A stretch of DNA of 64,000 bases from IMG/VR virus record IMGVR_UViG_2541047860_000002, one strand, 5' to 3'. The DNA comes from a virus (taxonomy: Duplodnaviria > Heunggongvirae > Uroviricota > Caudoviricetes). Below are positions 23,758 through 64,000 of this stretch, in pieces. The notes beneath the pieces are model-generated. The model was not told the origin of the DNA. It saw only the letters and a program-made list of their open reading frames with translations, and did not search any database. Position 1 is the stretch's first letter; each line of letters starts with the position of its first letter. The position numbers were made by a program, and so were the translations under genes.

Positions 23758-25419
23758 ATGAGTGAGGCAGAAGCCCGCCCGACTAACTTTATTCGTCAGA
23801 TCATCGATGAAGATCTGGCCAGTGGTAAGCACACCACAGTACATACCCGTTTCCCGCCGGAACCGAATGGCTATCTGCATATTGGTCATGCGAAATCTAT
23901 CTGCCTGAACTTCGGGATCGCCCAGGACTATAAAGGCCAGTGCAACCTGCGTTTCGACGACACTAACCCGGTAAAAGAAGATATCGAGTACGTTGAGTCG
24001 ATTAAAAACGACGTTGAATGGTTAGGTTTTCACTGGTCTGGCAACATCCGTTACTCCTCCGATTATTTTGACAAACTCCATGCCTATGCTGTTGAACTGA
24101 TCAACAAAGGCCTGGCGTATGTTGACGAACTGACGCCGGAACAGATCCGCGAATACCGCGGCACCCTGACGCAGCCGGGTAAAAACAGCCCGTACCGCGA
24201 CCGCAGCGTTGAAGAGAACCTGGCGCTGTTCGAAAAAATGCGTGCCGGTGGTTTTGAAGAAGGTAAAGCCTGCCTGCGTGCGAAAATCGACATGGCTTCG
24301 CCGTTTATCGTGATGCGCGACCCGGTGCTGTACCGTATTAAGTTTGCTGAACACCACCAGACTGGCAACAAGTGGTGCATCTACCCGATGTACGACTTCA
24401 CCCACTGCATCAGCGATGCGCTGGAAGGTATTACGCACTCTCTGTGTACGCTTGAGTTCCAGGACAACCGTCGTCTGTATGACTGGGTACTGGACAACAT
24501 CACCATTCCTGTTCACCCGCGCCAGTACGAATTCTCGCGCCTGAATCTGGAATACACCGTGATGTCCAAGCGTAAGCTGAACCTGCTGGTGACCGACAAG
24601 CACGTTGAAGGCTGGGATGACCCGCGTATGCCGACCATTTCCGGTCTGCGTCGTCGTGGTTACACTGCGGCTTCTATTCGTGAGTTCTGCAAACGCATCG
24701 GCGTGACCAAGCAGGACAACACCATTGAGATGGCGTCGCTGGAATCCTGCATCCGTGAAGATCTCAACGAAAATGCCCCGCGCGCAATGGCGGTTATCGA
24801 TCCGGTGAAACTGGTTATCGAAAACTACCAGGGCGAAGGCGAAATGGTCACCATGCCGAACCATCCAAACAAACCGGAAATGGGTAGCCGTCAGGTGCCG
24901 TTTAGCGGTGAGATTTGGATCGACCGCGCCGATTTCCGCGAAGAAGCTAACAAGCAGTACAAACGTCTGGTGCTGGGTAAAGAAGTGCGTCTGCGTAATG
25001 CTTACGTCATTAAGGCTGAACGCGTGGAGAAAGATGCCGAAGGCAATATCACCACCATCTTCTGTACTTATGACGCCGACACCTTAAGCAAAGATCCGGC
25101 AGATGGTCGTAAAGTGAAAGGCGTTATTCACTGGGTGAGCGCGGCACATGCGCTGCCGGTTGAAATTCGCCTGTACGACCGTCTGTTCAGTGTACCGAAC
25201 CCAGGTGCTGCGGATGATTTCCTGTCGGTGATTAACCCGGAATCGCTGGTGATCAAACAAGGCTTTGCTGAACCGTCGCTGAAAGAAGCGGTAGCGGGTA
25301 AAGCATTCCAGTTTGAGCGTGAAGGTTATTTCTGCCTCGACAGCCGCCATTCTACGGCGGAAAAACCGGTATTTAACCGCACCGTTGGGCTGCGTGATAC
25401 CTGGGCGAAGTTAGGTTAA
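23758..25419 (+). CDS. glnS: Glutaminyl-tRNA synthetase
   Basis: 553-aa class I aaRS with HIGH (HIGHAKS) and VMSKR motifs and full-length enterobacterial GlnRS-like sequence; own promoter region and terminator. Confidence 0.95.
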
Positions 25420-37643: not shown

Positions 37644-38585
37644 TTAACTAACAATCCAGTCCGTAGCAACAACATCCTCTGGAGCTAAATCAATCGCATG
37701 GATTTTCCCATCCCGGATAGTGCGCCAGTGCTTTCGTGATCCACCTTCGGGCCATACCCATACACCTTCAGGCCAAGATGCTCGACGGCATACGATTGCA
37801 TACCCTGTTTTAATCCTCTCTCTGGCGGTATGCAACGACAGGTTTGCCTTTGGACTTTCAGGCACAGGATGGTGGATTGCCTGAAACATCCCCATCTTTG
37901 GATGATACCAGCGTTTATTGCGTGGTTCTGCCTCCGACATCACCTGCTTAAAGGCTTTCCGGAAGGGGGCCAGAGCCACAATGGAGCGTCGCGCAAGCAA
38001 GCCATCGGGGGTCAAAAACTCATGTGTATCGGTGGGAATCCGGTAAGCGTTAACCAGGTTGCGGCATTTGGCTTCAGTCAGGCCGCATTTCGCCGCCAGC
38101 TGGCGGTAGCCAATGTAACCTTCCGGCATATTGCCTTTCTTGATTTGCTCGAGTGTTTCAGCAACCATCGATACTTGTGCTGATACCTCGGCTACCTGGG
38201 CATTTACGGCGTTGATCCGGCGTTCATGCTCAAGATGCATTTGCGCCATTTCAGCCAGGATTTCGGCTTTTGATTTTAACTGTACCCGGGCATTCTCCAG
38301 TTCGCGCCAGCGGTCCACTAGCCGGGCGGTAAATTCGGGAGAGAGCTGCGCGACGACAACAATGCTGTCTCGTTTTCCTTGCTCGCCTTCGAAGACATAG
38401 ACCGGATCTTTGACAACCTTCCCTAAGTTATTGATTCTTTCGACGAACTCATTTTGAGTTTCTCGGATGACACCGCTAGCCATCATATTGCGAATGGTAC
38501 GTAAAACATTGCCGTGACGACTACCAACTAACTCTGCAATATCTAGGCTACTCATTGTCGCTTTTTGAGAGATGGACAGATTCAT
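37644..38585 (-). CDS. Phage antirepressor (Rha/Ant N-terminal domain)
   Basis: N-terminal SSLDIAELVGSRHGNVLRTIRNM typical of Rha/AntA family. Confidence 0.65.
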   Translation of the reverse strand: MNLSISQKATMSSLDIAELVGSRHGNVLRTIRNMMASGVIRETQNEFVERINNLGKVVKDPVYVFEGEQGKRDSIVVVAQLSPEFTARLVDRWRELENARVQLKSKAEILAEMAQMHLEHERRINAVNAQVAEVSAQVSMVAETLEQIKKGNMPEGYIGYRQLAAKCGLTEAKCRNLVNAYRIPTDTHEFLTPDGLLARRSIVALAPFRKAFKQVMSEAEPRNKRWYHPKMGMFQAIHHPVPESPKANLSLHTARERIKTGYAIVCRRASWPEGVWVWPEGGSRKHWRTIRDGKIHAIDLAPEDVVATDWIVS

Positions 38586-38800
38586 CAGTGCACCTCCACG
38601 CAGTTCATCGGCAGATTCCAGTAATTGAGGATCTCCATCGCATCAAGAGTGAAGCGAGCAGCAAAAATGCAGGGTTCTTCGGGAAGGTATGAGCGCGCCT
38701 CTGATTCGGTAGCAGCCATGACGCAGATATACAGGTGCTTTTGGCAGGAATAGAAACGCCAGATAAATTCAGAATGAGTTGGGGTAGGGATAGTAGCCAT
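38585..38800 (-). CDS. Small protein translationally coupled to antirepressor (Icd-like position)
   Basis: 71-aa ORF whose stop overlaps the ant start. Confidence 0.35.
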   Translation of the reverse strand: MATIPTPTHSEFIWRFYSCQKHLYICVMAATESEARSYLPEEPCIFAARFTLDAMEILNYWNLPMNCVEVH

Positions 38801-38829
38801 ATTGGCAGCCTCCTTTTGCTAATTTAAGG

Positions 38830-38940
38830 AGCTACCGCGTGAGGTCTCAATCTCAATGGCGGTAGCACTGGCTGGGTTGAGACTACCGGCGCAAAAGGGA
38901 ACCGGCCTGCCTTTCGGCAGCCCAGCCAGCACTACCATTG
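38830..38940 (-). ncRNA. Candidate structured leader / antisense-type RNA upstream of icd-ant
   Basis: Nested inverted repeats: GCTACCGC/GCGGTAGC, and GGTAGCACTGGCTGGG (38861-38876) pairing 14/16 with CCCAGCCAGCACTACC (38921-38936); no ORF. Confidence 0.25.
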
Positions 38941-39112
38941 ATCTTGGAGCTATACGCTACGTATGGCTGTGCGATGGCATGACACAAAAAAAGACGCTTT
39001 CGGCGTCTGTGTCGCCTTTTGCATTATCCGGGGTCTCAATCCCGGCACCCGTTTTTCTAAGGTGCCGTAGAAATATACCCCACGATAATGCCAGGGCGCA
39101 ACAGTCAGTATT

Positions 39113-39280
39113 TTATGCTTTGGCGGATTTTTTCCGGGCTTGCTTGCAGGCGTAGGCCATTGCTTTAGCTTTCACTTCATCCAGCTTCCCGGTGATCACT
39201 TCTTTTCCGAGAGTGACAAACCAGTCATAGCAACCGCCAGTAATGTTCTTGATTTGAAAGTTGAGGTAGCGAACAGTCAT
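39113..39280 (-). CDS. Small protein (55 aa) with strong RBS
   Basis: GGGGG 8 nt upstream of ATG; below ORF track cut-off. Confidence 0.3.
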   Translation of the reverse strand: MTVRYLNFQIKNITGGCYDWFVTLGKEVITGKLDEVKAKAMAYACKQARKKSAKA

Positions 39281-39599
39281 TTTGACACCCCCAGCGCGAG
39301 TAAAGAATGCAGATTATCGCGTGAGTGGTGGACGACGAGTGATGGGAAAAGACTGTAGTTGTTCATAGTGTAGTGACTCCTTGCTTTCGGAGCCGCCATC
39401 GACTGTTCCACGGTCTGGTGGCGGCGCAATAAAGGCTGGAACACCGTGAGTCAACGGGGGCTTTTCAGCCACCTATATTGCACCGCCATAGGTATGGCGG
39501 CGGCAATAATACGAAAAACTAAACAGTTTGTCTCAAAAAGTTGACCGGTGTGCCAATCGGTAGTGAATGTACATCGGAGAAATTTTCAATTCAACTTAA

Positions 39600-39618
39600 A
39601 ATGTTAGAAAACTAATTT
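39600..39618. promoter_or_regulatory. Operator-like motif AATGTTAGAAAACTAATTT
   Basis: Core ATGTTAGAAAACTAA identical to the site at 54926. Confidence 0.4.
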
Positions 39619-40190
39619 ATCAATTCAATTGCCATCTGATACAACGCCATTTCATCGGCATTGTGCCGCATGAAATCTGCTTTTCCGCCTATTTTTCCAT
39701 CAGCATGAACAGGGACCAGCCAGGGATATTGTTCTCGGACCTCGGCTGGCGCTGCGTACTGGTGGTGCCATTTACACAAAGGGAGGACATATTTATGCGC
39801 GTTCTCTGCCGTTCTCCCGAAGATATGGTGCAGGGATACTACTGGGCTATGTTGCCCGTGAATATGGCAGGCAATGCAGGGGAGAGTACCGATAGCGGTC
39901 TGTATCCGGCGTTCATCGGCTGTGAGTGATCTGCCCTTCAGGCCGCGTGACGTGCGTGTTTTTTTGGACGGAGCGGATACAGCTTTCTCTTTTCTCCGCT
40001 GGTCATATTGCTTTGCTTTTTCAATTTTTTTTTGCCGATATTCAGGCGATGCGGCTTTTTCTCTCGCTCGCTGCTGCTGGCGTTGAGCTTGTTGAAGGCG
40101 CTTTGCCCTTTGTTCCTCTCGCCAGGCCGGGTCAGCCAATTTTTGCATGGCTTTTTGTCTCTGTTTCTCCCAGTAGCTCTGTTTCTGCAT
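39612..40190 (-). CDS. HNH-like nuclease with basic disordered N-terminus (Ref-like, putative)
   Basis: N-terminal 100 aa K/R/Q-rich; C-terminal CIACHIHGQH..SLHHI..CKWHH metal-binding motif. Confidence 0.45.
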   Translation of the reverse strand: MQKQSYWEKQRQKAMQKLADPAWREEQRAKRLQQAQRQQQRAREKAASPEYRQKKIEKAKQYDQRRKEKAVSAPSKKTRTSRGLKGRSLTADERRIQTAIGTLPCIACHIHGQHSPVVSLHHIFGRTAENAHKYVLPLCKWHHQYAAPAEVREQYPWLVPVHADGKIGGKADFMRHNADEMALYQMAIELIN

Positions 40191-40211
40191 GATGGCTGCC
40201 TCTTACTTTTC

Positions 40212-40272
40212 AGCGATTTTTCTATGATTGATCAAAATTGTTAGATATTCAAAATTGATTTTCTAACACAAA
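40212..40272. promoter_or_regulatory. Operator-like motif cluster in divergent promoter region
   Basis: ATTTTTCTA, TTGTTAGATA and TTTTCTAACACAAAA. Confidence 0.4.
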
Positions 40273-40462
40273 ACATTAATATCATTCCTGATAACTGTTT
40301 GGAGGACATGATGCTTATAGCTTTAAGTGCGATCCACCAGCCATCTGTGAATGAGATTGGCCTGTTCTATGTGTTGTTTTTCGGGGCGTTGGCGCTACTT
40401 GAGCTTGGTATTGAGCTTTTCGCAGTGCTTATGTTTTGCGTCACGATTTTGGGGAAATTTTG

Positions 40463-41086
40463 ATGGTGAAACGTGTTTTGAAAATTTACATCGCGGGGCC
40501 GATGACTGGTTATCCAGATTACAACCGTGCGGCGTTTAATGCGAAAGCGAGCGAGTTGATGGCTGAAGGGCATATCGTTCTGAATCCAGCGGTGTTACCT
40601 GGTGGCCTTTGCCAGAGTGAATACATGGATATTTGCCTGGCAATGGTGCGTTCTGCTGATGCGATCTATTTGCTCAATCAATGGGAAGAATCGGTTGGTG
40701 CTCGTGCAGAGCACGCGTTGGCTGAAAAGCTTGGGCTGACTGTAATTTATGAGTCACCAACCAACATTGAATGCCAGGTTGCTACGCATATTTACCGGGA
40801 ACTGGTCAATGCGTTACGTGATGTTGCTATTGAATGTCACGGCACGGATCAGCTTCGCGCTCGCTTAAGCCAAACCCTTTCCAGTTACCTGTCTTTGGCT
40901 GAAGGATACAACCTCCGACAGCGAAGAATGGTCAGATTAATCACGCGGTTATCTCAATCCCTGGCAAATGCTGAACCAACTAATCCGCTACCTAATGACG
41001 CAATGAATTATCTGAAGTCATGCGGCGTTGTTTCTGAAGATGCAGTTCGTTTTGTGGAGTTTATGTCTCAGAGGATGTCGGCGTGA
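40463..41086 (+). CDS. Nucleoside 2-deoxyribosyltransferase-like (DUF4406-like) protein with C-terminal shared module
   Basis: KIYIAGPMTGYPDYNRAAF N-terminus; C-terminal HIYRELVNALRDVAIECHGTDQLRARLS also found in ORF 46824..47990. Confidence 0.4.
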   Translation: MVKRVLKIYIAGPMTGYPDYNRAAFNAKASELMAEGHIVLNPAVLPGGLCQSEYMDICLAMVRSADAIYLLNQWEESVGARAEHALAEKLGLTVIYESPTNIECQVATHIYRELVNALRDVAIECHGTDQLRARLSQTLSSYLSLAEGYNLRQRRMVRLITRLSQSLANAEPTNPLPNDAMNYLKSCGVVSEDAVRFVEFMSQRMSA

Positions 41087-41400
41087 GCTGGCGGGGATGG
41101 GGAAGGGCAGAAATCATGATACTCCGCCAGTGCGCCGGAACTATGACGGTCGAGAGTATTGGGAAGCTGATCGGTCGTACCGGTGATGCCGTCAGGACTA
41201 AAGCGCGGGAGTTGGGGATCAGCATGATTCTGAAAGGAGACTTTCATCCGTCAGCCAAATACCGGCAGAGCGATATAGAACTGGCACGGCAGCTTCATCA
41301 GTGTGGTGTTCCCCGCCGTGAGATCGCGGAAAAACTCGAAATGCCCCTGGGCATGATTAATCAGTACGTTTATTTCGAAAGGAGAGTGTATGAAGTCTGA
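41083..41400 (+). CDS. Hypothetical protein
   Basis: 105-aa ORF. Confidence 0.35.
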   Translation: MSWRGWGRAEIMILRQCAGTMTVESIGKLIGRTGDAVRTKARELGISMILKGDFHPSAKYRQSDIELARQLHQCGVPRREIAEKLEMPLGMINQYVYFERRVYEV

Positions 41401-41899
41401 AGGTTTAACGCCCGCACAACTGGCAGAGCGTAACGCTGAGTATGTAACGGAAATTTCCCGACTTGAGCAAGAACGCTCGGCGCTGGCGGCGGAGAATGCG
41501 GGAATAAAGTCTGCAATTCCAGAATCACGGGATATTGAGGATGACAATGACAATATGGATGACGTATCTCTCGCGGAAGATTTCGGGTTCAATCATGCAA
41601 TAGAACTGATGAGGAGACGGATTCCTGAAACTCCGGCCACCGACGCTTTCCTGGCTGAAGTACGTGCGGAGGCACGCAACGAGGGGATTAACTACACCGC
41701 AAGCCGTCTTGCTGCTGCGTTCAATCACGGATTTATCAATAAGTCTTTGCGTGAAGTTTTCGACGTTACACGCATGATTTTGTCAGCGAAAGAAGAGTTG
41801 GCTAATGAACCGCATCCGCTTGATGGCCTGTCCGGTGAATATGCGGAGAAATCCCTAGAAGAATGGGCGGAACAGATTCGCAAAGGAAGCAGCCAGTGA
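41390..41899 (+). CDS. Hypothetical protein
   Basis: 169-aa ORF. Confidence 0.35.
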   Translation: MKSEGLTPAQLAERNAEYVTEISRLEQERSALAAENAGIKSAIPESRDIEDDNDNMDDVSLAEDFGFNHAIELMRRRIPETPATDAFLAEVRAEARNEGINYTASRLAAAFNHGFINKSLREVFDVTRMILSAKEELANEPHPLDGLSGEYAEKSLEEWAEQIRKGSSQ

Positions 41900-43409: not shown

Positions 43410-43450
43410 AAATTTGTTAGAACATTGATTATAGTTTTCTAACATATTAT
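43410..43450. promoter_or_regulatory. Operator-like motif pair
   Basis: TTGTTAGAACA and inverted TTTTCTAACATA upstream of ORF 43487. Confidence 0.4.
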
Positions 43451-59389: not shown

Positions 59390-59782
59390 CTACCAGCGAG
59401 ACAAACGAACAACATGTTTCACTTTTGCGATCCACTTTCCGCGATAACTATTGATTACGGCCTGTGCCAGCTTCAAATTGGCTTCAAAATCAGCCTTACT
59501 ACCATCAGACTCCACCAGCATTCCTCCATCTATTTCTGGTAAACATAGATAATCCTGCTCAACCTGCAGCGGCATTGATGGCTCTCTGAATGGCGTTACT
59601 TGCTCTGCTTTCCAGCGAAATCTAACCCTCATCCCCCTGGTGGTCATTACTAGATAGCCTGTTATAGTGCTTTTATGGCCCACATCAGTACGCGTGGCAT
59701 TGCATGACACGATCTTACAGTTAGCGATAGACCACTCCATATTGGTGGCCTGTTGAGTGCTTAATTTGGTAGTCCCGTACAT
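59390..59782 (-). CDS. Hypothetical protein
   Basis: 130-aa ORF. Confidence 0.35.
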   Translation of the reverse strand: MYGTTKLSTQQATNMEWSIANCKIVSCNATRTDVGHKSTITGYLVMTTRGMRVRFRWKAEQVTPFREPSMPLQVEQDYLCLPEIDGGMLVESDGSKADFEANLKLAQAVINSYRGKWIAKVKHVVRLSRW

Positions 59783-60357
59783 CAGAAAGCCTCCCAGTCA
59801 GTCGCGATAATATCCACACCAGTTGCAAACCAGTCTGTCTGCGCCTGTAAATCCCCATTCATCATTACCAGGCGAGGCATCACCATCACATCGCACCCTT
59901 CCACAATATCGAATGCCTCTTCCGGCAAGAATTCGAAGAGCTTTTCTTTGCTGCCAATGCTGCCACGGAACATCGATATATAGCTCCCTTTAGGCCATGA
60001 TGTCCGCCGGGCATCAAGCCCTTTCATCATCCAGTAAAAAGCCGAGGAAAAAGGGATATTCTTTTTGCCAATGATTACATTATTCGCTTCTGTGTACTTC
60101 AGGAACTTAACTAACCTTACCATTGACTCGGATAACGCAACGTATGGCTCATGATTGATTGCTGACACGCTTACACCGTGCAATCCAACGCTTACCACTG
60201 TCATATCGCCGCTCTGTGCGGTTTCGATATTGACGCCTTTGCGAACTAATGAGGCGTAAAGTTCCTCTCGCTTTTGGGTCCAGCGTTCCCGCTTCCCTAT
60301 GAAGTCACTCAAAATGAGATCTTCTTCTGCATATGCGTTATCGTTCGCCATTAACAT
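59782..60357 (-). CDS. Hypothetical protein
   Basis: 191-aa ORF. Confidence 0.35.
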   Translation of the reverse strand: MLMANDNAYAEEDLILSDFIGKRERWTQKREELYASLVRKGVNIETAQSGDMTVVSVGLHGVSVSAINHEPYVALSESMVRLVKFLKYTEANNVIIGKKNIPFSSAFYWMMKGLDARRTSWPKGSYISMFRGSIGSKEKLFEFLPEEAFDIVEGCDVMVMPRLVMMNGDLQAQTDWFATGVDIIATDWEAF

Positions 60358-60811
60358 AACGTCTCCTTTTTTACACGCGCGACTATCCCCCGGAAGTGCC
60401 GGTAGTGATGTCGTAAATTCGTATTAATTAAGGGGTACAGCCTGAGCGGCTATATGATGAATTGAAAGGAGTTGTGGCGGTGGTGCCTCCACCTGCCAGG
60501 TTAGCCACTCCTGGCGACGTCACTTATCAGAACGTAGTGAATAAAAATGGCTTCGTCACGAGCGCATAGCCGCAATTACCACAACGGAAACGGCGCTCAC
60601 GCTAATTAAACGCCTTTTCCTGTTGTGCGCCGTGCTCTTCCGGCTGTCACACCGAATCGCCAGGATGGTGAGTCCTCGGTCCGCCACTGTTATCGGGGCT
60701 TGCACATTCCGGCTACCTGGTCCGTTTGCCTGAGCAAGAGTCAAAGATACCCCTTTAACGTCACCAGACCGCTAACGACGCATGTGCCAGACGCCGTGTT
60801 ACAACCAAATA

Positions 60812-60887
60812 TGGTGGCCCCTACCGGACTTGAACCGGTGACCGTGCGATTATGAGTCGCCAGCTCTAACCACTGAGCTAAAGGGCC
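60812..60887 (-). tRNA. tRNA with CAU anticodon (Ile2 lysidine-type or Met; resembles enterobacterial ileX)
   Basis: Manual cloverleaf: acceptor GGCCCTT/AGGGGCC, D-arm GCTCAGTGGTTAGAGC, anticodon loop CTCATAA, T-arm ACCGG-TTCAAGT-CCGGT, 3' CCA. Confidence 0.7.
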
Positions 60888-61041
60888 AGATTACTGTTAA
60901 TTCCGCTTACGCTTTTTGCCAGGACCGCGTAAGGCTTTTGCTGCTTGCTCGACCCCATATGCAACCACCAGCAGAAATAAAAATGTCCACCAAGGGTTCT
61001 TGTCGGCAAACGTCCAAAATTCCATCATGTTATCTATTTGG

Positions 61042-61869
61042 TTATTTCACCGGAACAAACGGAACAGCGGTATTACTGGTCATATACTGCGGTAGCGTTC
61101 CGTTCCATTTGTTGATCGCTTCCAACTCCATAACGCCGGGGTTCTGGCGCAGAGCCTCACCGCGTAAACGAATGGCATCAGCTTCAGCCTGGGCTTTTGT
61201 GCGAATGGCATCGGCCTGTCCAGCAGCTTCTGCGCGCAGCATGTTGGCTTCTGCTTCGCGTTGCTTGACTTCCTGCTCGCGTTGCAGAGTTTTCTGGTTC
61301 GCCGTGACTTTGGCATTAATGCTGTCGATAACGGTTGGCGGGTACTCCGGCTTGCCCACATATGAGAGGCTCATTACCTGAATACCGATGGGCGTCATTT
61401 CTTCCTGAATGTCTTTAAGGGCTGCATCAAGCAATTCAGATTTGCCACCGTCGATAAATTTGTCGGTGGTCATTTTGCTGGCTAACCGGTTCAGAGCATC
61501 TGCAACCTTCTGGCGTAGATCGGTATCAGTAATATCATCTACACCTTTGCGATAGGTCTGAAATACCGTTGTGACTTTTGCTGGATCAACCTTGTAGGCT
61601 ACGCCGATGTGGTAACCAATGGTTGTTCCGTCGCTCATCTGGAAGCTGAACGGCTCATCGTATGTCTTCATTTGCTTAAAGGTCGGGAAGATATAAACTT
61701 CAGTATTCAAGCCTGTCCAGTAGCGACCAACGCCAACTACTTCACCGATACCTTTATCATCCCCCAGCTTATTTACTTTGATCCCTACGTTACCTGGCTC
61801 TACCCGATCGCATCCGGTCAGACATAAAGAACCAAAAATAATCGCTGCACTAATCAACGTTTTTTTCAT
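61042..61869 (-). CDS. SPFH/band-7 domain lipoprotein
   Basis: Signal peptide with lipobox LTGC; stomatin/prohibitin-like core and Ala/Glu-rich coiled-coil tail. Confidence 0.65.
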   Translation of the reverse strand: MKKTLISAAIIFGSLCLTGCDRVEPGNVGIKVNKLGDDKGIGEVVGVGRYWTGLNTEVYIFPTFKQMKTYDEPFSFQMSDGTTIGYHIGVAYKVDPAKVTTVFQTYRKGVDDITDTDLRQKVADALNRLASKMTTDKFIDGGKSELLDAALKDIQEEMTPIGIQVMSLSYVGKPEYPPTVIDSINAKVTANQKTLQREQEVKQREAEANMLRAEAAGQADAIRTKAQAEADAIRLRGEALRQNPGVMELEAINKWNGTLPQYMTSNTAVPFVPVK

Positions 61870-62086
61870 TAATCAATTTCCTGGTTTTTTCACGAAAAAA
61901 GACTACTGCAAAAGCCGGGTAAATGAGCGCGAGAAGGACTCCCAACAATACAAGTATTGTGCTGTCAGATGAGATCATATTTGGCAAAAGCCAAACATAC
62001 AGAACCAGTGACACAATCAAACAGAGGACGACATAAATATATAACCGCACCCATAGCGTTCGACATTTGTTCGGATTGTTCTGCAT
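61850..62086 (-). CDS. Small two-TM membrane protein, overlapping start of SPFH gene
   Basis: 78-aa ORF, two hydrophobic helices. Confidence 0.4.
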   Translation of the reverse strand: MQNNPNKCRTLWVRLYIYVVLCLIVSLVLYVWLLPNMISSDSTILVLLGVLLALIYPAFAVVFFREKTRKLINEKNVD

Positions 62087-62349
62087 CCTCTCACTCCATT
62101 ATTTACCGAATAAAAAAGCTGCGGTGCCTGGTGCCTCCAGGTGACGTTAACCAGTTAACAATTAACGCCGGGATGTTTGACTTAACCACTAAGGAGGATT
62201 GTTTTAACTGTTCCGCGTGCGCTTAGCCGCATTCACCGCAATGGTAAGAGCACTTGGCTGGCTGGGCGGCGATGACGCCTGTACGCATTTGGTGATCCGG
62301 TTCTGCTTCCGGCATTCGCTTAATTAGCCAAATACTCTTAACGTTGCAC

Positions 62350-62436
62350 TGGCGGAGAGTAATGGAATCGAACCATCATCGCTTGCGCAATGGGACGGTT
62401 TTCAAGACCGCTTGAGCACCATGCTCCCTACTCTCC
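62350..62436 (-). tRNA. tRNA-Ser(UGA)-like, type II (long variable arm), atypical D-arm
   Basis: Acceptor GGAGAGT/ACTCTCC, anticodon stem-loop GCGGT-CTTGAAA-ACCGT, T-loop TTCGATT, 3' GCCA. Confidence 0.4.
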
Positions 62437-62838
62437 AGTGATTGTGATGGTCGGTGCTGAACTCCGACACAGGGTTGTAGCAAGCCCCGCAAAGCGCGCA
62501 CTACTGTAGTTGCGGCACATCAGCCTGTGCATTCACCACAATGTTGAGAACACTGGTTGTCACGCTGCAACGCAACATTTATTCATAGATTGGGATATGA
62601 CCCCGTTACGCCAGTGTTCTCAACGTTGTGGTGCCGGTTACGGTTCCGGCCAGGCCTCTTCCTCAACGGGGTGTTCTCCATACGGACTACCGTTTATTGG
62701 TCGTTCCTGCGGTTTATGTTGTGAAGCCAGATGCTTATCTTCTGGTTGCTTCAAAGAGCTGCACTTCATCACAACGGTAAGAGCACTCGATGCATTTAAG
62801 CCAAGCCCCATAAGGGAGAATGCCCTTACCTGTTGTGT

Positions 62839-62914
62839 TGGTGCCGGTTAACGGACTCGAACCGCTGACATCCTGCTTACAAGGCAGGCGCTCTACCAAC
62901 TGAGCTAAACCGGC
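62839..62914 (-). tRNA. tRNA-Thr(UGU)
   Basis: Acceptor GCCGGTT/AACCGGC, D-arm GCTCAGTTGGTAGAGC, anticodon loop CTTGTAA, T-loop TTCGAGT, CCA. Confidence 0.8.
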
Positions 62915-62918
62915 AATT

Positions 62919-63005
62919 TGGTGGGGAGTGATGGAGTCGAACCACCCGAGTCGCAATGACAGTAGATTTACAGTCTACCCCGCTACCCCTACGGACTAAC
63001 TCCCC
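62919..63005 (-). tRNA. tRNA-Tyr(GUA), type II
   Basis: Acceptor GGGGAGT/ACTCCCC, anticodon stem-loop GTAGA-CTGTAAA-TCTAC, 15-nt variable arm, T-loop TTCGACT, CCA. Confidence 0.6.
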
Positions 63006-63010
63006 TAAAT

Positions 63011-63087
63011 TGGCGATGGTGGGTGGATTCGAACCACCGACCGACAGCTTAGAAGGCTGCTGCTCTATCCTACTGAGCTACACCATC
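63011..63087 (-). tRNA. tRNA-Arg(UCU)
   Basis: Acceptor GATGGTG/CACCATC, D-arm GCTCAGTAGGATAGAGC, anticodon loop CTTCTAA, T-arm GGTGG-TTCGAAT-CCACC, GCCA. Confidence 0.75.
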
Positions 63088-63547
63088 ACTTGCCGGGTAC
63101 GTCTCCGGCGAGGGCTTCCACCTCCGTATGCTTTTCGGCGCACCGCGCCCTGGCTGCAATTCGGTAACAGGGGATGCACAACCCTGGCTTCCAGCGTGAT
63201 TAGCGCCTTCAGCATGACGGGATATACCCGTAGTAGGATGTTATCCCAGAAAGCCATTAATCAATGGCTGTTACGCGGGAGGGACGTAACAGGTAAGGGC
63301 GCTGACCAGAAAGACCTGACCCTTCTCATTCATCTGGTTAATCACACCAGCGCCCTTGCCTGTTATGCCTCCCCGTTCCCTAATACACAGACGGGGACAC
63401 TCTGCGGTCGATTTTTTGACGGGGGACGACTCATACCCCGTGGCGTCTGGCTTCTTAGGCCGCTACCATCATCAGATCATCGTTTGCATTTACTTTAATG
63501 GTCGGTTTCTAAACCGCCGCAAAGTCGCTAACCATGACGAAAACCCT

Positions 63548-63571
63548 AAAAAAGCCCACCCGAAGATGGGC
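63548..63571 (-). terminator. Rho-independent terminator (minus strand)
   Basis: Minus strand reads GCCCATCTTCGGGTGGGC followed by TTTTTT. Confidence 0.5.
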
Positions 63572-64000
63572 AAATACGCTACATCTCACACAAGAAAGAA
63601 GCCGACTGCCTGAGCTGGATTCACTTTCAAATGCCCGCAGAAAGGGATCACAAGTCGGCTTCTTTCTTGATGCGGCACTCTCTCCGCCCGTCACCGCTCT
63701 GTCTCGGTTGTCGCGTTTGCCACGCCAGCCGTAACGAGGTTTAAAGTCTTTACACGTTTCCATCACTCGACTGCCGTCTGTGGCTGTTCGTTGCAGCGGG
63801 GGTGCCTCCCCCTGGGGATATCCCCGGCCTTACCCCATTCTTTCAAGACACAATGCAAGGCCACATCCGCATAGGTGCATTACCGCAACATTAAGGAGAC
63901 TCAGGGCAAAAGGTAACCGCCACAAAAATCCCTATGCCTCCTTAATGTTGAAGATGTGCATTGATGATTAGATGCAGCATGTACCGTTACTCTCTGCCGG

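Follow-up and report, generated by a model that had tools for sequence, protein, structure and literature searches.

The tRNA array and the element that carries it

The DNA analyzed here, a 64,000-nucleotide (nt) stretch of IMG/VR virus record IMGVR_UViG_2541047860_000002 (hereafter the window), carries an array of five transfer RNA (tRNA) genes at positions 60812-63087. Judged by its backbone, which comprises RepB, ParM, a c4/icd immunity region, lpa-pacAB, Phd/Doc and a full-length glnS gene, the window is a D6-like (P1-related) plasmid prophage of Escherichia coli and Salmonella. The tRNA locus is 100% identical to that of ~90-kb plasmids present in several complete E. coli genomes. A locus of at least 99% identity was found in approximately 30 E. 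coli records, where the same five genes are annotated as tRNA-Ile, tRNA-Ser, tRNA-Thr, tRNA-Tyr and tRNA-Arg.

The whole window was searched with ARAGORN, and the Rfam tRNA model was applied with its gathering cut-off of 29 bits. ARAGORN distinguished five tRNA genes, all located on the minus strand, and none elsewhere in the window. The first gene of the array is tRNA-Arg(UCU) (63011-63087; ARAGORN tct; Rfam 72.1 bits; tRNA-Arg in the annotation of NCBI's PGAP), which reads AGA and, weakly, AGG. It is followed by the class II tRNA-Tyr(GUA) (62919-63005; gta; 41.9 bits) and by tRNA-Thr(UGU), a reader of ACA (62839-62914; tgt; 74.9 bits). Then come tRNA-Ser(UGA), a class II tRNA of a phage type (62350-62436; tga, with the anticodon at position 33; PGAP tRNA-Ser), and lastly tRNA-Ile2(CAU) (60812-60887; cat, labelled 'Met' by ARAGORN; 64.7 bits; PGAP tRNA-Ile). 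Four of the five genes passed the Rfam gathering threshold, with E-values from 1e-14 to 2e-5, and a 3′ CCA end is encoded in every one of them. An earlier reading made without database searches (hereafter the sequence-only reading) had proposed five tRNA genes at this locus; the ARAGORN run on the whole window returned the same coordinates and left the anticodons CAU, UGA, UGU, GUA and UCU unchanged, rejecting no candidate. These five genes are genuine tRNA genes.

In their anticodon loops all five genes agree fully with the E. coli K-12 genes ileX, serT, thrU, tyrU and argU. Outside these loops the identity to the host genes is 64-89%, and the changes preserve the stems; where tRNA-Ile2, tRNA-Thr and tRNA-Arg depart from their host counterparts, or from the Asn allele described below, the changes fall in stems whose pairing is kept. 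The tRNA-Thr gene is 98.7% identical to trnT of phage P1, 80% to K-12 thrU and 83% to the tRNA-Thr gene of phage T4, and a tRNA-Thr(UGU) also reads ACU and ACG via modified U34. In tRNA-Arg we found A20 in the D-loop, C35 and the discriminator base G73, i.e. features used by arginyl-tRNA synthetase. The recognition features of seryl-tRNA synthetase, G73 and the variable stem (PMC5389517, PMC7609411), are likewise present in the tRNA-Ser gene, whose variable arm is long. The tRNA-Tyr (62919-63005) contains two extra nt between position 9 and the D-stem in comparison with both the Rfam model and host tyrU; the same two-nt extension is present in its rV5-like homologue.

The CAU gene encodes tRNA-Ile2

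The sequence-only reading had described the CAU gene as 'Ile2-like', and comparison with named genes bears this out. It shares its full sequence (100% identity) with P1 trnI, called tRNA-Ile2 by the P1 annotators, and shows 89.5% identity to K-12 ileX versus 71.4% to the elongator gene metT. Like ileX it has the pairs C4:G69 and C5:G68, whereas metT has U:A and A:U at these positions; E. coli TilS relies on these two pairs as its major identity elements (PMC11947777). In the anticodon stem-loop the gene departs from ileX at the closing pair only, which is G27:A43 instead of G27-U43. The label Met assigned by ARAGORN is thus contradicted by the identity to P1 trnI, the similarity to ileX and the TilS pairs, and on these sequence grounds the CAU gene is a tRNA-Ile2 gene. 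Host TilS is predicted to convert its CAU anticodon to lysidine, which would give AUA reading.

Codon usage of the element

To compare codon usage, 78 intact coding sequences of the window (16,482 codons), transferred by BLAST from the PGAP annotation of plasmid NZ_AP022217.1, were set against 76 K-12 coding sequences from two chromosomal stretches (24,223 codons). The phage genes proved AT-richer than those of the host, as the sequence-only reading had supposed: coding GC content is 0.475 in the window and 0.517 in the host, and the corresponding values for third codon positions are 0.463 and 0.544. Ranked by window/host ratio among the 61 sense codons, AGG comes first (4.7x), followed by AGA (3.9x; 1.8 per 1000 in the host), AUA (3.1x; 4.1 per 1000) and ACA (1.9x; 7.8 per 1000), with UCA in rank 6 (1.7x; 7.4 per 1000). 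The two Tyr codons rank much lower: UAC is 18th (1.28x; 10.9 per 1000) and UAU 26th (1.18x; 14.7 per 1000).

When the codons were grouped by the 40 E. coli anticodon species, Arg-UCU, Ile2, Thr-UGU and Ser-UGA took ranks 2, 3, 4 and 5 for enrichment; a random set of four tRNAs would rank as well with P ~1e-4. The genes argU, ileX/Y, thrU and serT are low-copy in the host. Taken together, AGA, AUA, ACA and UCA are more frequent in structural and packaging genes (median 52 per 1000) than elsewhere (38.5 per 1000; p=0.015), and the element's most rare-codon-rich genes include toxin-antitoxin and other non-structural genes.

Codon compensation therefore fits the four tRNAs in ranks 2-5 (Arg, Ile2, Thr and Ser), and fails for Tyr (1.2-1.3x) and for the alternative Asn tRNA found on related plasmids. 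In the sequence-only reading all five tRNAs were said to read A-ending, host-rare codons and to fit compensation for the codon usage of the phage genes. The first statement does not hold for Tyr-GUA, which reads UAC/UAU. Rarity in the host has to be restricted in a similar way, since UAC and UAU are not rare and UCA and ACA are low-usage rather than rare; compensation itself stands for the four tRNAs and falls for Tyr.

We consider it probable that the array is an accessory codon-compensating tRNA set of a D6-like plasmid prophage, following the logic known from the tRNAs of phage T4. The position of the homologous P1 array in the C1-repressed ban operon and the wide, conserved occurrence of the locus also favor this view. 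From the genes, their identity features, their provenance and the codon statistics, all shown here, we infer how the array would be expressed, processed, charged and modified, and what benefit it would bring. Transcription would yield one or a few polycistronic precursors, which host RNases would process; the products would be charged by host synthetases, with host TilS making lysidine at C34 of the CAU tRNA. They could then top up the scarce host readers of AGA, AUA, ACA and UCA, codons that the AT-richer phage genes, the structural ones above all, use at 2-4x the host level. The Tyr gene stands outside this codon logic and more probably raises or buffers the supply of tRNA-Tyr, e.g. against defences that deplete it.

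Several points weigh against this interpretation. The host reference is a 76-gene sample of K-12 rather than the whole genome. Tyr takes rank 9-13 among the 40 anticodon species (1.2x); like the Tyr codons, those of the alternative Asn allele (1.16x) are not rare in the host, so the variable slot at the head of the array is not accounted for by compensation. Near-identical plasmids carry tRNA-Asn(GUU) where the window has tRNA-Arg(UCU) (395 vs 80 plasmids), and compensation can thus be no absolute requirement; because Asn-allele plasmids lack Arg(UCU) and P1 lacks Ser, each tRNA is dispensable. In an AT-richer element A-ending codons are enriched anyway, which makes the correlation necessary, not sufficient. 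Finally, a sigma-70 consensus scan of positions 60300-64000, crude and confined to this promoter type, gave no promoter, and no P1-type C1 operator was found near the array (the sole match in the window, at 43410, has 3 mismatches and is at chance level).

The missing operator speaks for an explanation that we nonetheless regard as improbable, namely that the array serves the lysogen or the plasmid, either through expression in the prophage state as a rare-codon helper for AT-rich acquired genes or through maintenance together with glnS. It would suit a stably kept plasmid with the addiction modules RelE/HigA and Phd/Doc and a full-length glnS, a gene discussed for D6-like plasmids as a possible fitness or maintenance aid (PMC6799933), and it would agree with the rare-codon-rich toxin-antitoxin and other non-structural genes. 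However, the homologous array of P1 lies downstream of the C1-repressed Pban promoter (ban operon) and of a "dicF-like region", and should be silent or weakly expressed in lysogens. The higher average content of the four codons in structural genes and the occurrence of the same tRNA set in the virulent T4 and rV5-like phages speak against it as well.

A mosaic Arg gene and a Tyr cassette at the head of the array

The Arg gene was compared with the 75-nt tRNA-Asn(GUU) allele of pM-199-4197, an unrelated 112-kb IncFIB phage-plasmid. The two genes differ at 13 positions, all within tRNA index 16-45, and not at all in the other 47 nt or in the flanks; clustering of this kind within 30 nt is expected with P ~3e-5 if the differences were scattered at random. 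The neighbouring Tyr and Thr genes differ from those of pM-199-4197 by 1 and 2 nt, respectively. The 30-nt patch (63043-63072, minus strand) covers the D-loop, the anticodon stem-loop and the first base of the variable loop. It exchanges the D-loop, thereby introducing A20, changes the anticodon from GUU to UCU and alters four of the five anticodon-stem pairs without loss of pairing (G-C to G-U, U-A to C-G, U-A to A-U and G-C to C-G). In the resulting anticodon arm 15 of 17 positions match the Arg gene of the rV5-like phage FFH2, compared with 8 of 17 for the Asn allele. A search of the phage collection for a donor of the patch yielded no close one; the best full-length matches (~88%) were generic tRNA-Arg(UCU) genes of cyanophages and others.

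In PLSDB the Asn allele was found on 395 plasmids of several families and the Arg allele on 80 plasmids, all of them from Escherichia or Salmonella. Because of this difference, Asn is most likely the ancestral occupant of the slot, and we infer that a short gene-conversion patch switched the Asn gene to Arg(UCU) in place. No description of the Arg/Tyr variant or of the mosaic gene was found in the searchable literature, although one may exist.

The Tyr gene forms an inserted cassette of ~90 nt that separates the first gene of the array from Thr. It is 93% identical to the tRNA-Tyr of FFH2 and 69% to K-12 tyrU, and belongs to a family common to T5-, T4- and rV5-like virulent phages. The cassette is missing from p1_035148, pEC11, P1 and D6, is present in phage Ro157c2YLVW and in pM-199-4197, and occurs on 244 PLSDB plasmids. 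Four configurations of the head were thus distinguished: Asn-Thr (P1, D6, pEC11), Arg-Thr (p1_035148), Asn-Tyr-Thr (Ro157c2YLVW and pM-199-4197, the latter also with Ser) and Arg-Tyr-Thr (the window). By these sequence comparisons the head of the array is modular, with Arg apparently derived from the Asn gene residing in the slot through the 30-nt patch and Tyr apparently inserted as a cassette.

Such mosaicism invites the view that the tRNA genes are neutral cargo, i.e. hitch-hiking recombination remnants, some of them non-functional, lying in a recombination-prone spacer. The four head forms, the swapped neighbours (an SPFH module in place of the tciABC genes of P1/D6), the repeated hairpins that flank the tRNA genes and the lack of every tRNA in some relatives would all agree with it. 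We nevertheless hold it to be very improbable, as the cloverleaves, identity elements and CCA ends are intact in all five genes, substitutions relative to host genes and among the phage Ser homologues are compensatory, and the choice of anticodons is non-random (P ~1e-4). The Arg patch, which keeps pairing and brings in A20 together with the new anticodon, likewise points to selection for function.

A serious rival to codon compensation where the variable slot is concerned is an anti-defence supply, in which the tRNAs, or at least the head-slot Asn, Tyr and Arg, would replace host tRNAs destroyed by anticodon nucleases or depleting systems; the array would then belong to an anti-defence island and not be an adaptation to codon usage. 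Asn, Tyr and Arg tRNAs are among the classes hit by E. coli anticodon nucleases: tRNAs for Tyr, His, Asn and Asp are attacked by colicin E5, and those for Arg by colicin D. Codon usage leaves Tyr and Asn unexplained, the window Tyr family is shared with T5-, T4- and rV5-like virulent phages, and a Tad2 gene lies ~450 nt downstream of Ile2. The PtuAB effector of retron-Eco7 depletes host tRNA-Tyr, and a T5-family tRNA-Tyr rescues phages from this system (PMC11555353); the window encodes the same isoacceptor, tRNA-Tyr(GUA). Any functional tRNA-Tyr provides this rescue if it is strongly expressed (PMC11555353); the T5 mechanism needs very high expression, whereas the sigma-70 scan gave no strong promoter. 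Phage tRNAs have been proposed to act against nucleases in general and to carry nuclease-evading mutations in their loops (PMC10264068), but the five anticodon loops of the window are those of the host and no such mutations were found. As the four A-reading tRNAs also match the prediction from codon usage beyond chance, we treat anti-defence as a possible explanation of the array and codon compensation as the preferred one.

The mosaic Arg gene indicates that the amino-acid identity of a phage tRNA may be changed by an internal patch of 30 nt, which bears on tRNA evolution and engineering. Near-identical plasmids that differ in Asn/Arg and in the presence of Tyr amount to a natural experiment and, since they are otherwise near-identical, compensation and anti-defence could be tested against each other in isogenic backgrounds. 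Plasmids of this kind are frequent in E. coli and Salmonella from clinical and livestock sources, and resistance genes are often found on them.

A serine tRNA with a compact D-arm

The Ser(UGA) gene had been noted in the sequence-only reading for an atypical D-arm in need of confirmation. The arm consists of a 4-bp stem and a 5-nt loop, with A8, compared with a 3-bp stem and an 11-nt loop in host serT. The variable arm has a 5-bp stem capped by GCAA, and the anticodon UGA, G73 and the encoded CCA complete the structure. The gene gave no Rfam match at the gathering threshold; in a permissive search its best match within the clan was tRNA-Sec (44.6 bits, cut-off 47; E=7e-7). A sequence identical to it is annotated as tRNA-Ser by PGAP.

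Covariation was examined in a set of 20 distinct homologues, with 500 shuffles and slid controls. Across these homologues 97% of the cloverleaf positions are paired (40-54% in the slid controls), and 17-18 of the 25 pairs, including all four of the D-stem, change on both sides. None of the 500 shuffles matched the observed values and every helix is supported. The unusual D-arm is thus real and is conserved with compensatory changes across several phage families, in agreement with the PGAP annotation. Homologues of the gene were found in P7, D6, Klebsiella phage-plasmids, rV5-, T5- and T4-like phages and an Acinetobacter phage, with identities of 90% in rV5-like phages and of 78% and 74% in T5-like and T4-like Klebsiella phages. 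The gene is present on 577 plasmids, among them Klebsiella phage-plasmids at 90% identity, and a pattern scan revealed short-5′-half Ser(UGA) tRNAs at no fewer than 120 loci in viral contigs. As the same gene occurs in several other elements, its D-arm is not a defect of one copy.

Phage P7 carries a 100% identical, unannotated copy (AF503408.1, 72257-72343), and the annotators of D6 remarked that the amino acid of the Ser(UGA) gene was not called by tRNAscan-SE.

An "(8/4) tRNA-Ser" with near-threshold tRNA-Sec matches and hairpin-like D-arms has been described in bacteriophages by Mukai et al. in 2017 (PMC5389517). With this (8/4) tRNA-Ser/allo-tRNA class the window Ser tRNA shares a long variable arm, G73, a serine anticodon, a 12-bp acceptor/T branch and occurrence in phages. 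The (8/4) consensus has a long D-stem and a tetraloop, whereas the stem of the window Ser family has 4 bp (5 in some members) and the loop 4-6 nt; in Klebsiella phage B01 the stem reaches 5 bp and encloses 4 nt. The window D-stem is thus shorter than that of tRNA-Sec, which has 6 bp. All 20 sequences of the closest subfamily keep the 8:65 pair (AU 17, GC 2, UG 1), with three double changes, and 18 of the 20 keep the 49:65 T-stem pair, with none. After four less similar sequences had been added, 8:65 paired in 21 of 24 and 49:65 in 22 of 24. In the window tRNA itself A8-U65 (8/4) and G49-U65 (7/5) can both form and are isoenergetic. Classing 77 unique viral Ser matches by D-arm geometry mixed unrelated subfamilies. 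The Ser tRNA therefore resembles the (8/4) tRNA-Ser class, and both the 8/4 and the 7/5 fold fit the window sequence.

A selenocysteine tRNA was considered and rejected: the UGA anticodon reads UCA and not the stop codon UGA, and the acceptor/T branch has 12 bp and not 13.

A composite scheme, in which the variable slot (Asn, Tyr, Arg) would be an anti-nuclease module with its identity rewritten in place, Thr, Ser and Ile2 would compensate codons and Ser would be of the (8/4) type and work as such in E. coli, strikes us as doubtful. In this scheme the Arg gene would have retained the acceptor stem, T-arm, flanks and processing context of its Asn parent, and the Tyr cassette would have come from virulent phages. 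The compact-D-arm Ser tRNA and the mosaic Arg gene are the points of most interest for experiment.

Spacer hairpins and the region upstream of the array

Four hairpins on the minus strand accompany the tRNA genes. The most stable one occupies the Ser-Thr spacer (62515-62650; -61.9 kcal/mol, z=-6.4) and is formed by inverted repeat I2, with 23-nt arms that are 96% complementary; none of 200 shuffles was equally stable. The second lies directly downstream of Thr (62750-62838; repeats D2 and D5; z=-3.6), the third ~180 nt upstream of the array (63265-63385; I3, 27-nt arms, 81% complementary; -54.2 kcal/mol, z=-4.8) and the fourth downstream of Ile2 (60555-60650; repeats D2, D4 and D5; z=-2.3). 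All four belong to one family with the common stem motif ACAACrGGUAAGrGCrCU, of which a partial copy is present near 62216-62254. Their predicted folds could represent processing sites, terminators or recombination substrates. An Rfam STnc100 match below threshold (62120-62240; 39.4 bits, cut-off 47) overlaps one copy of the hairpin.

Upstream of Arg a long hairpin with perfect 17-nt arms was identified at 63545-63690 (minus strand), in a region homologous to the 'dicF-like' region of P1. Behind it lies an intrinsic terminator consisting of GCCCATCTTCGGGTGGGC and a U-run (63571-63554, minus strand). The Rfam DicF model gave no match to this hairpin. By its sequence features 63545-63690 looks like a small RNA gene.

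The P1 counterpart (L002, 4285-4803) of the Ser-Thr stretch at 62443-62944 is annotated with plp and upl on the opposite strand. In the window this stretch contains no PGAP coding sequence; its sole open reading frame (ORF; 62510-62851, 113 aa) is Cys-rich and overlaps tRNA-Thr, and hairpins dominate the region. The plp and upl ORFs of P1 may not be real genes.

Genetic neighbourhood

The genes Tad2-lpa-pacAB are located downstream of the array. The Tad2 gene (59782-60357, minus strand), annotated as a Thoeris anti-defence gene, is ~450 nt downstream of tRNA-Ile2. Between Ile2 and Ser there is a gene for an SPFH-domain lipoprotein (61042-61869, minus strand), flanked by putative small membrane ORFs at 61850-62086 (78 aa) and 60897-61028 (43 aa). 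This module (60897-62086, minus strand) sits at the place of tciA/tciB/tciC in P1/D6, and similar SPFH genes are found in Stx and other lambdoid prophages.

The full-length glnS gene (23758-25419, plus strand) is 100% identical to the copy in NZ_AP022217.1. It contains 2 per 1000 of AGA+AUA+ACA+UCA, compared with an element median of ~40-50, and with this host-like usage the plasmid glnS is evidently of host origin. ARAGORN detected no tRNA-Gln gene in the window. The presence of glnS on D6-like plasmids has already been reported and its possible fitness or maintenance benefit discussed (PMC6799933).

The window is not collinear throughout with NZ_AP022217.1, from which it is distinguished by a 1.7-kb offset and a divergent segment at 38.4-41.5 kb. 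In this segment (38400-41500, the c4/icd/ant immunity region) identity is ~95% and some genes are replaced, compared with 99.7-100% elsewhere, which suggests a different immunity type. Rfam matches to the C4 antisense RNA (38855-38942) and to isrK (38987-39065) fall within the same segment.

Comparison with known phage tRNA arrays

The array is an ordinary, already annotated kind of feature, a phage tRNA array, in a variant configuration. Among its closest known counterparts is the homologous locus of P1 (NC_005856), which has the same orientation and encodes trnA (Asn), trnT (Thr) and trnI (Ile2). The Ile2 genes are 100% and the Thr genes 98.7% identical, and the upstream region, including the 'dicF-like region', is ~89% identical to the window. 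P1 has Asn where the window has Arg and Tyr, lacks Ser, and in place of the SPFH module contains tciABC and the plp/upl ORFs. The array of P1 is followed by ban, that of the window by Tad2-lpa-pacAB, i.e. the D6 arrangement.

D6-like prophages (Asn, Thr, Ser and 'Met' tRNAs, glnS; PMC6799933) have the same RepB, ParM, glnS and lpa-pacAB backbone and share the Ser(UGA) gene with the odd D-arm. D6 differs in carrying Asn and tciAB, whereas the window has the mosaic Arg allele, the Tyr cassette and the SPFH module. In the D6 record (NC_050154.1) three tRNAs are annotated on the strand opposite to that given by ARAGORN, and Ile2 (L003, 2313-2388) is unannotated.

The T4 set consists of Arg tct, Ile2 cat, Thr tgt, Ser tga, Pro tgg, Gly tcc, Leu taa and Gln ttg, all readers of A-ending codons. 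This set, the textbook example of codon compensation, contains four of the five window anticodons and lacks Tyr. Identity between the T4 and window tRNAs is 60-83%, and in the T4 Ser tRNA, whose D-arm is long and canonical, the anticodon falls at position 36. Structured small RNAs accompany the tRNAs in both, namely rnaC and rnaD in T4 and the spacer hairpins in the window. T4 is virulent, whereas the window element is a temperate plasmid prophage.

The cluster of FFH2 (rV5-like, Vequintavirus), Arg-Tyr-Ser-Thr-Ile2-Pro, comprises the five identities of the window plus Pro. The Tyr genes are 93% and the Ser genes 90% identical, with a further ~90 nt of homology past Ser, and in both elements Arg and Tyr are adjacent, separated by a spacer of 4-5 nt. 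In contrast, the Thr and Ile2 genes and the Arg scaffold of FFH2 are unrelated to those of the window (64-72%), whose Thr and Ile2 are P1 genes. FFH2 is a virulent myovirus and also encodes Pro and an odd 99-nt tRNA-like element. This element, for which ARAGORN gives a 4-base anticodon, lies between Ser and Thr in rV5-like phages (L006, 1690-1788; L011, 489-587). The FFH2 gene annotated as 'Met(CAT)' (L006, 1871-1945) has C4:G69, C5:G68 and an ileX-like anticodon arm; by these features the 'Met(CAT)' of rV5-like phages is probably misnamed and would be an Ile2 gene.

The window Tyr belongs to the same broad family as the T5-family tRNA-Tyr, being 78-82% identical to the genes of BF23 and other T5-like phages. 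The T5-family Tyr needs a strong promoter, whereas none was seen in the sigma-70 scan of 60300-64000, and the window Tyr sits on a temperate phage-plasmid.

The carriage of the same functional set by T4 and the rV5-like FFH2, which belong to unrelated lineages, supports compensation. The window is a temperate phage-plasmid with nearly the tRNAs that its codon usage predicts, the same set as in the virulent phages T4 and rV5.

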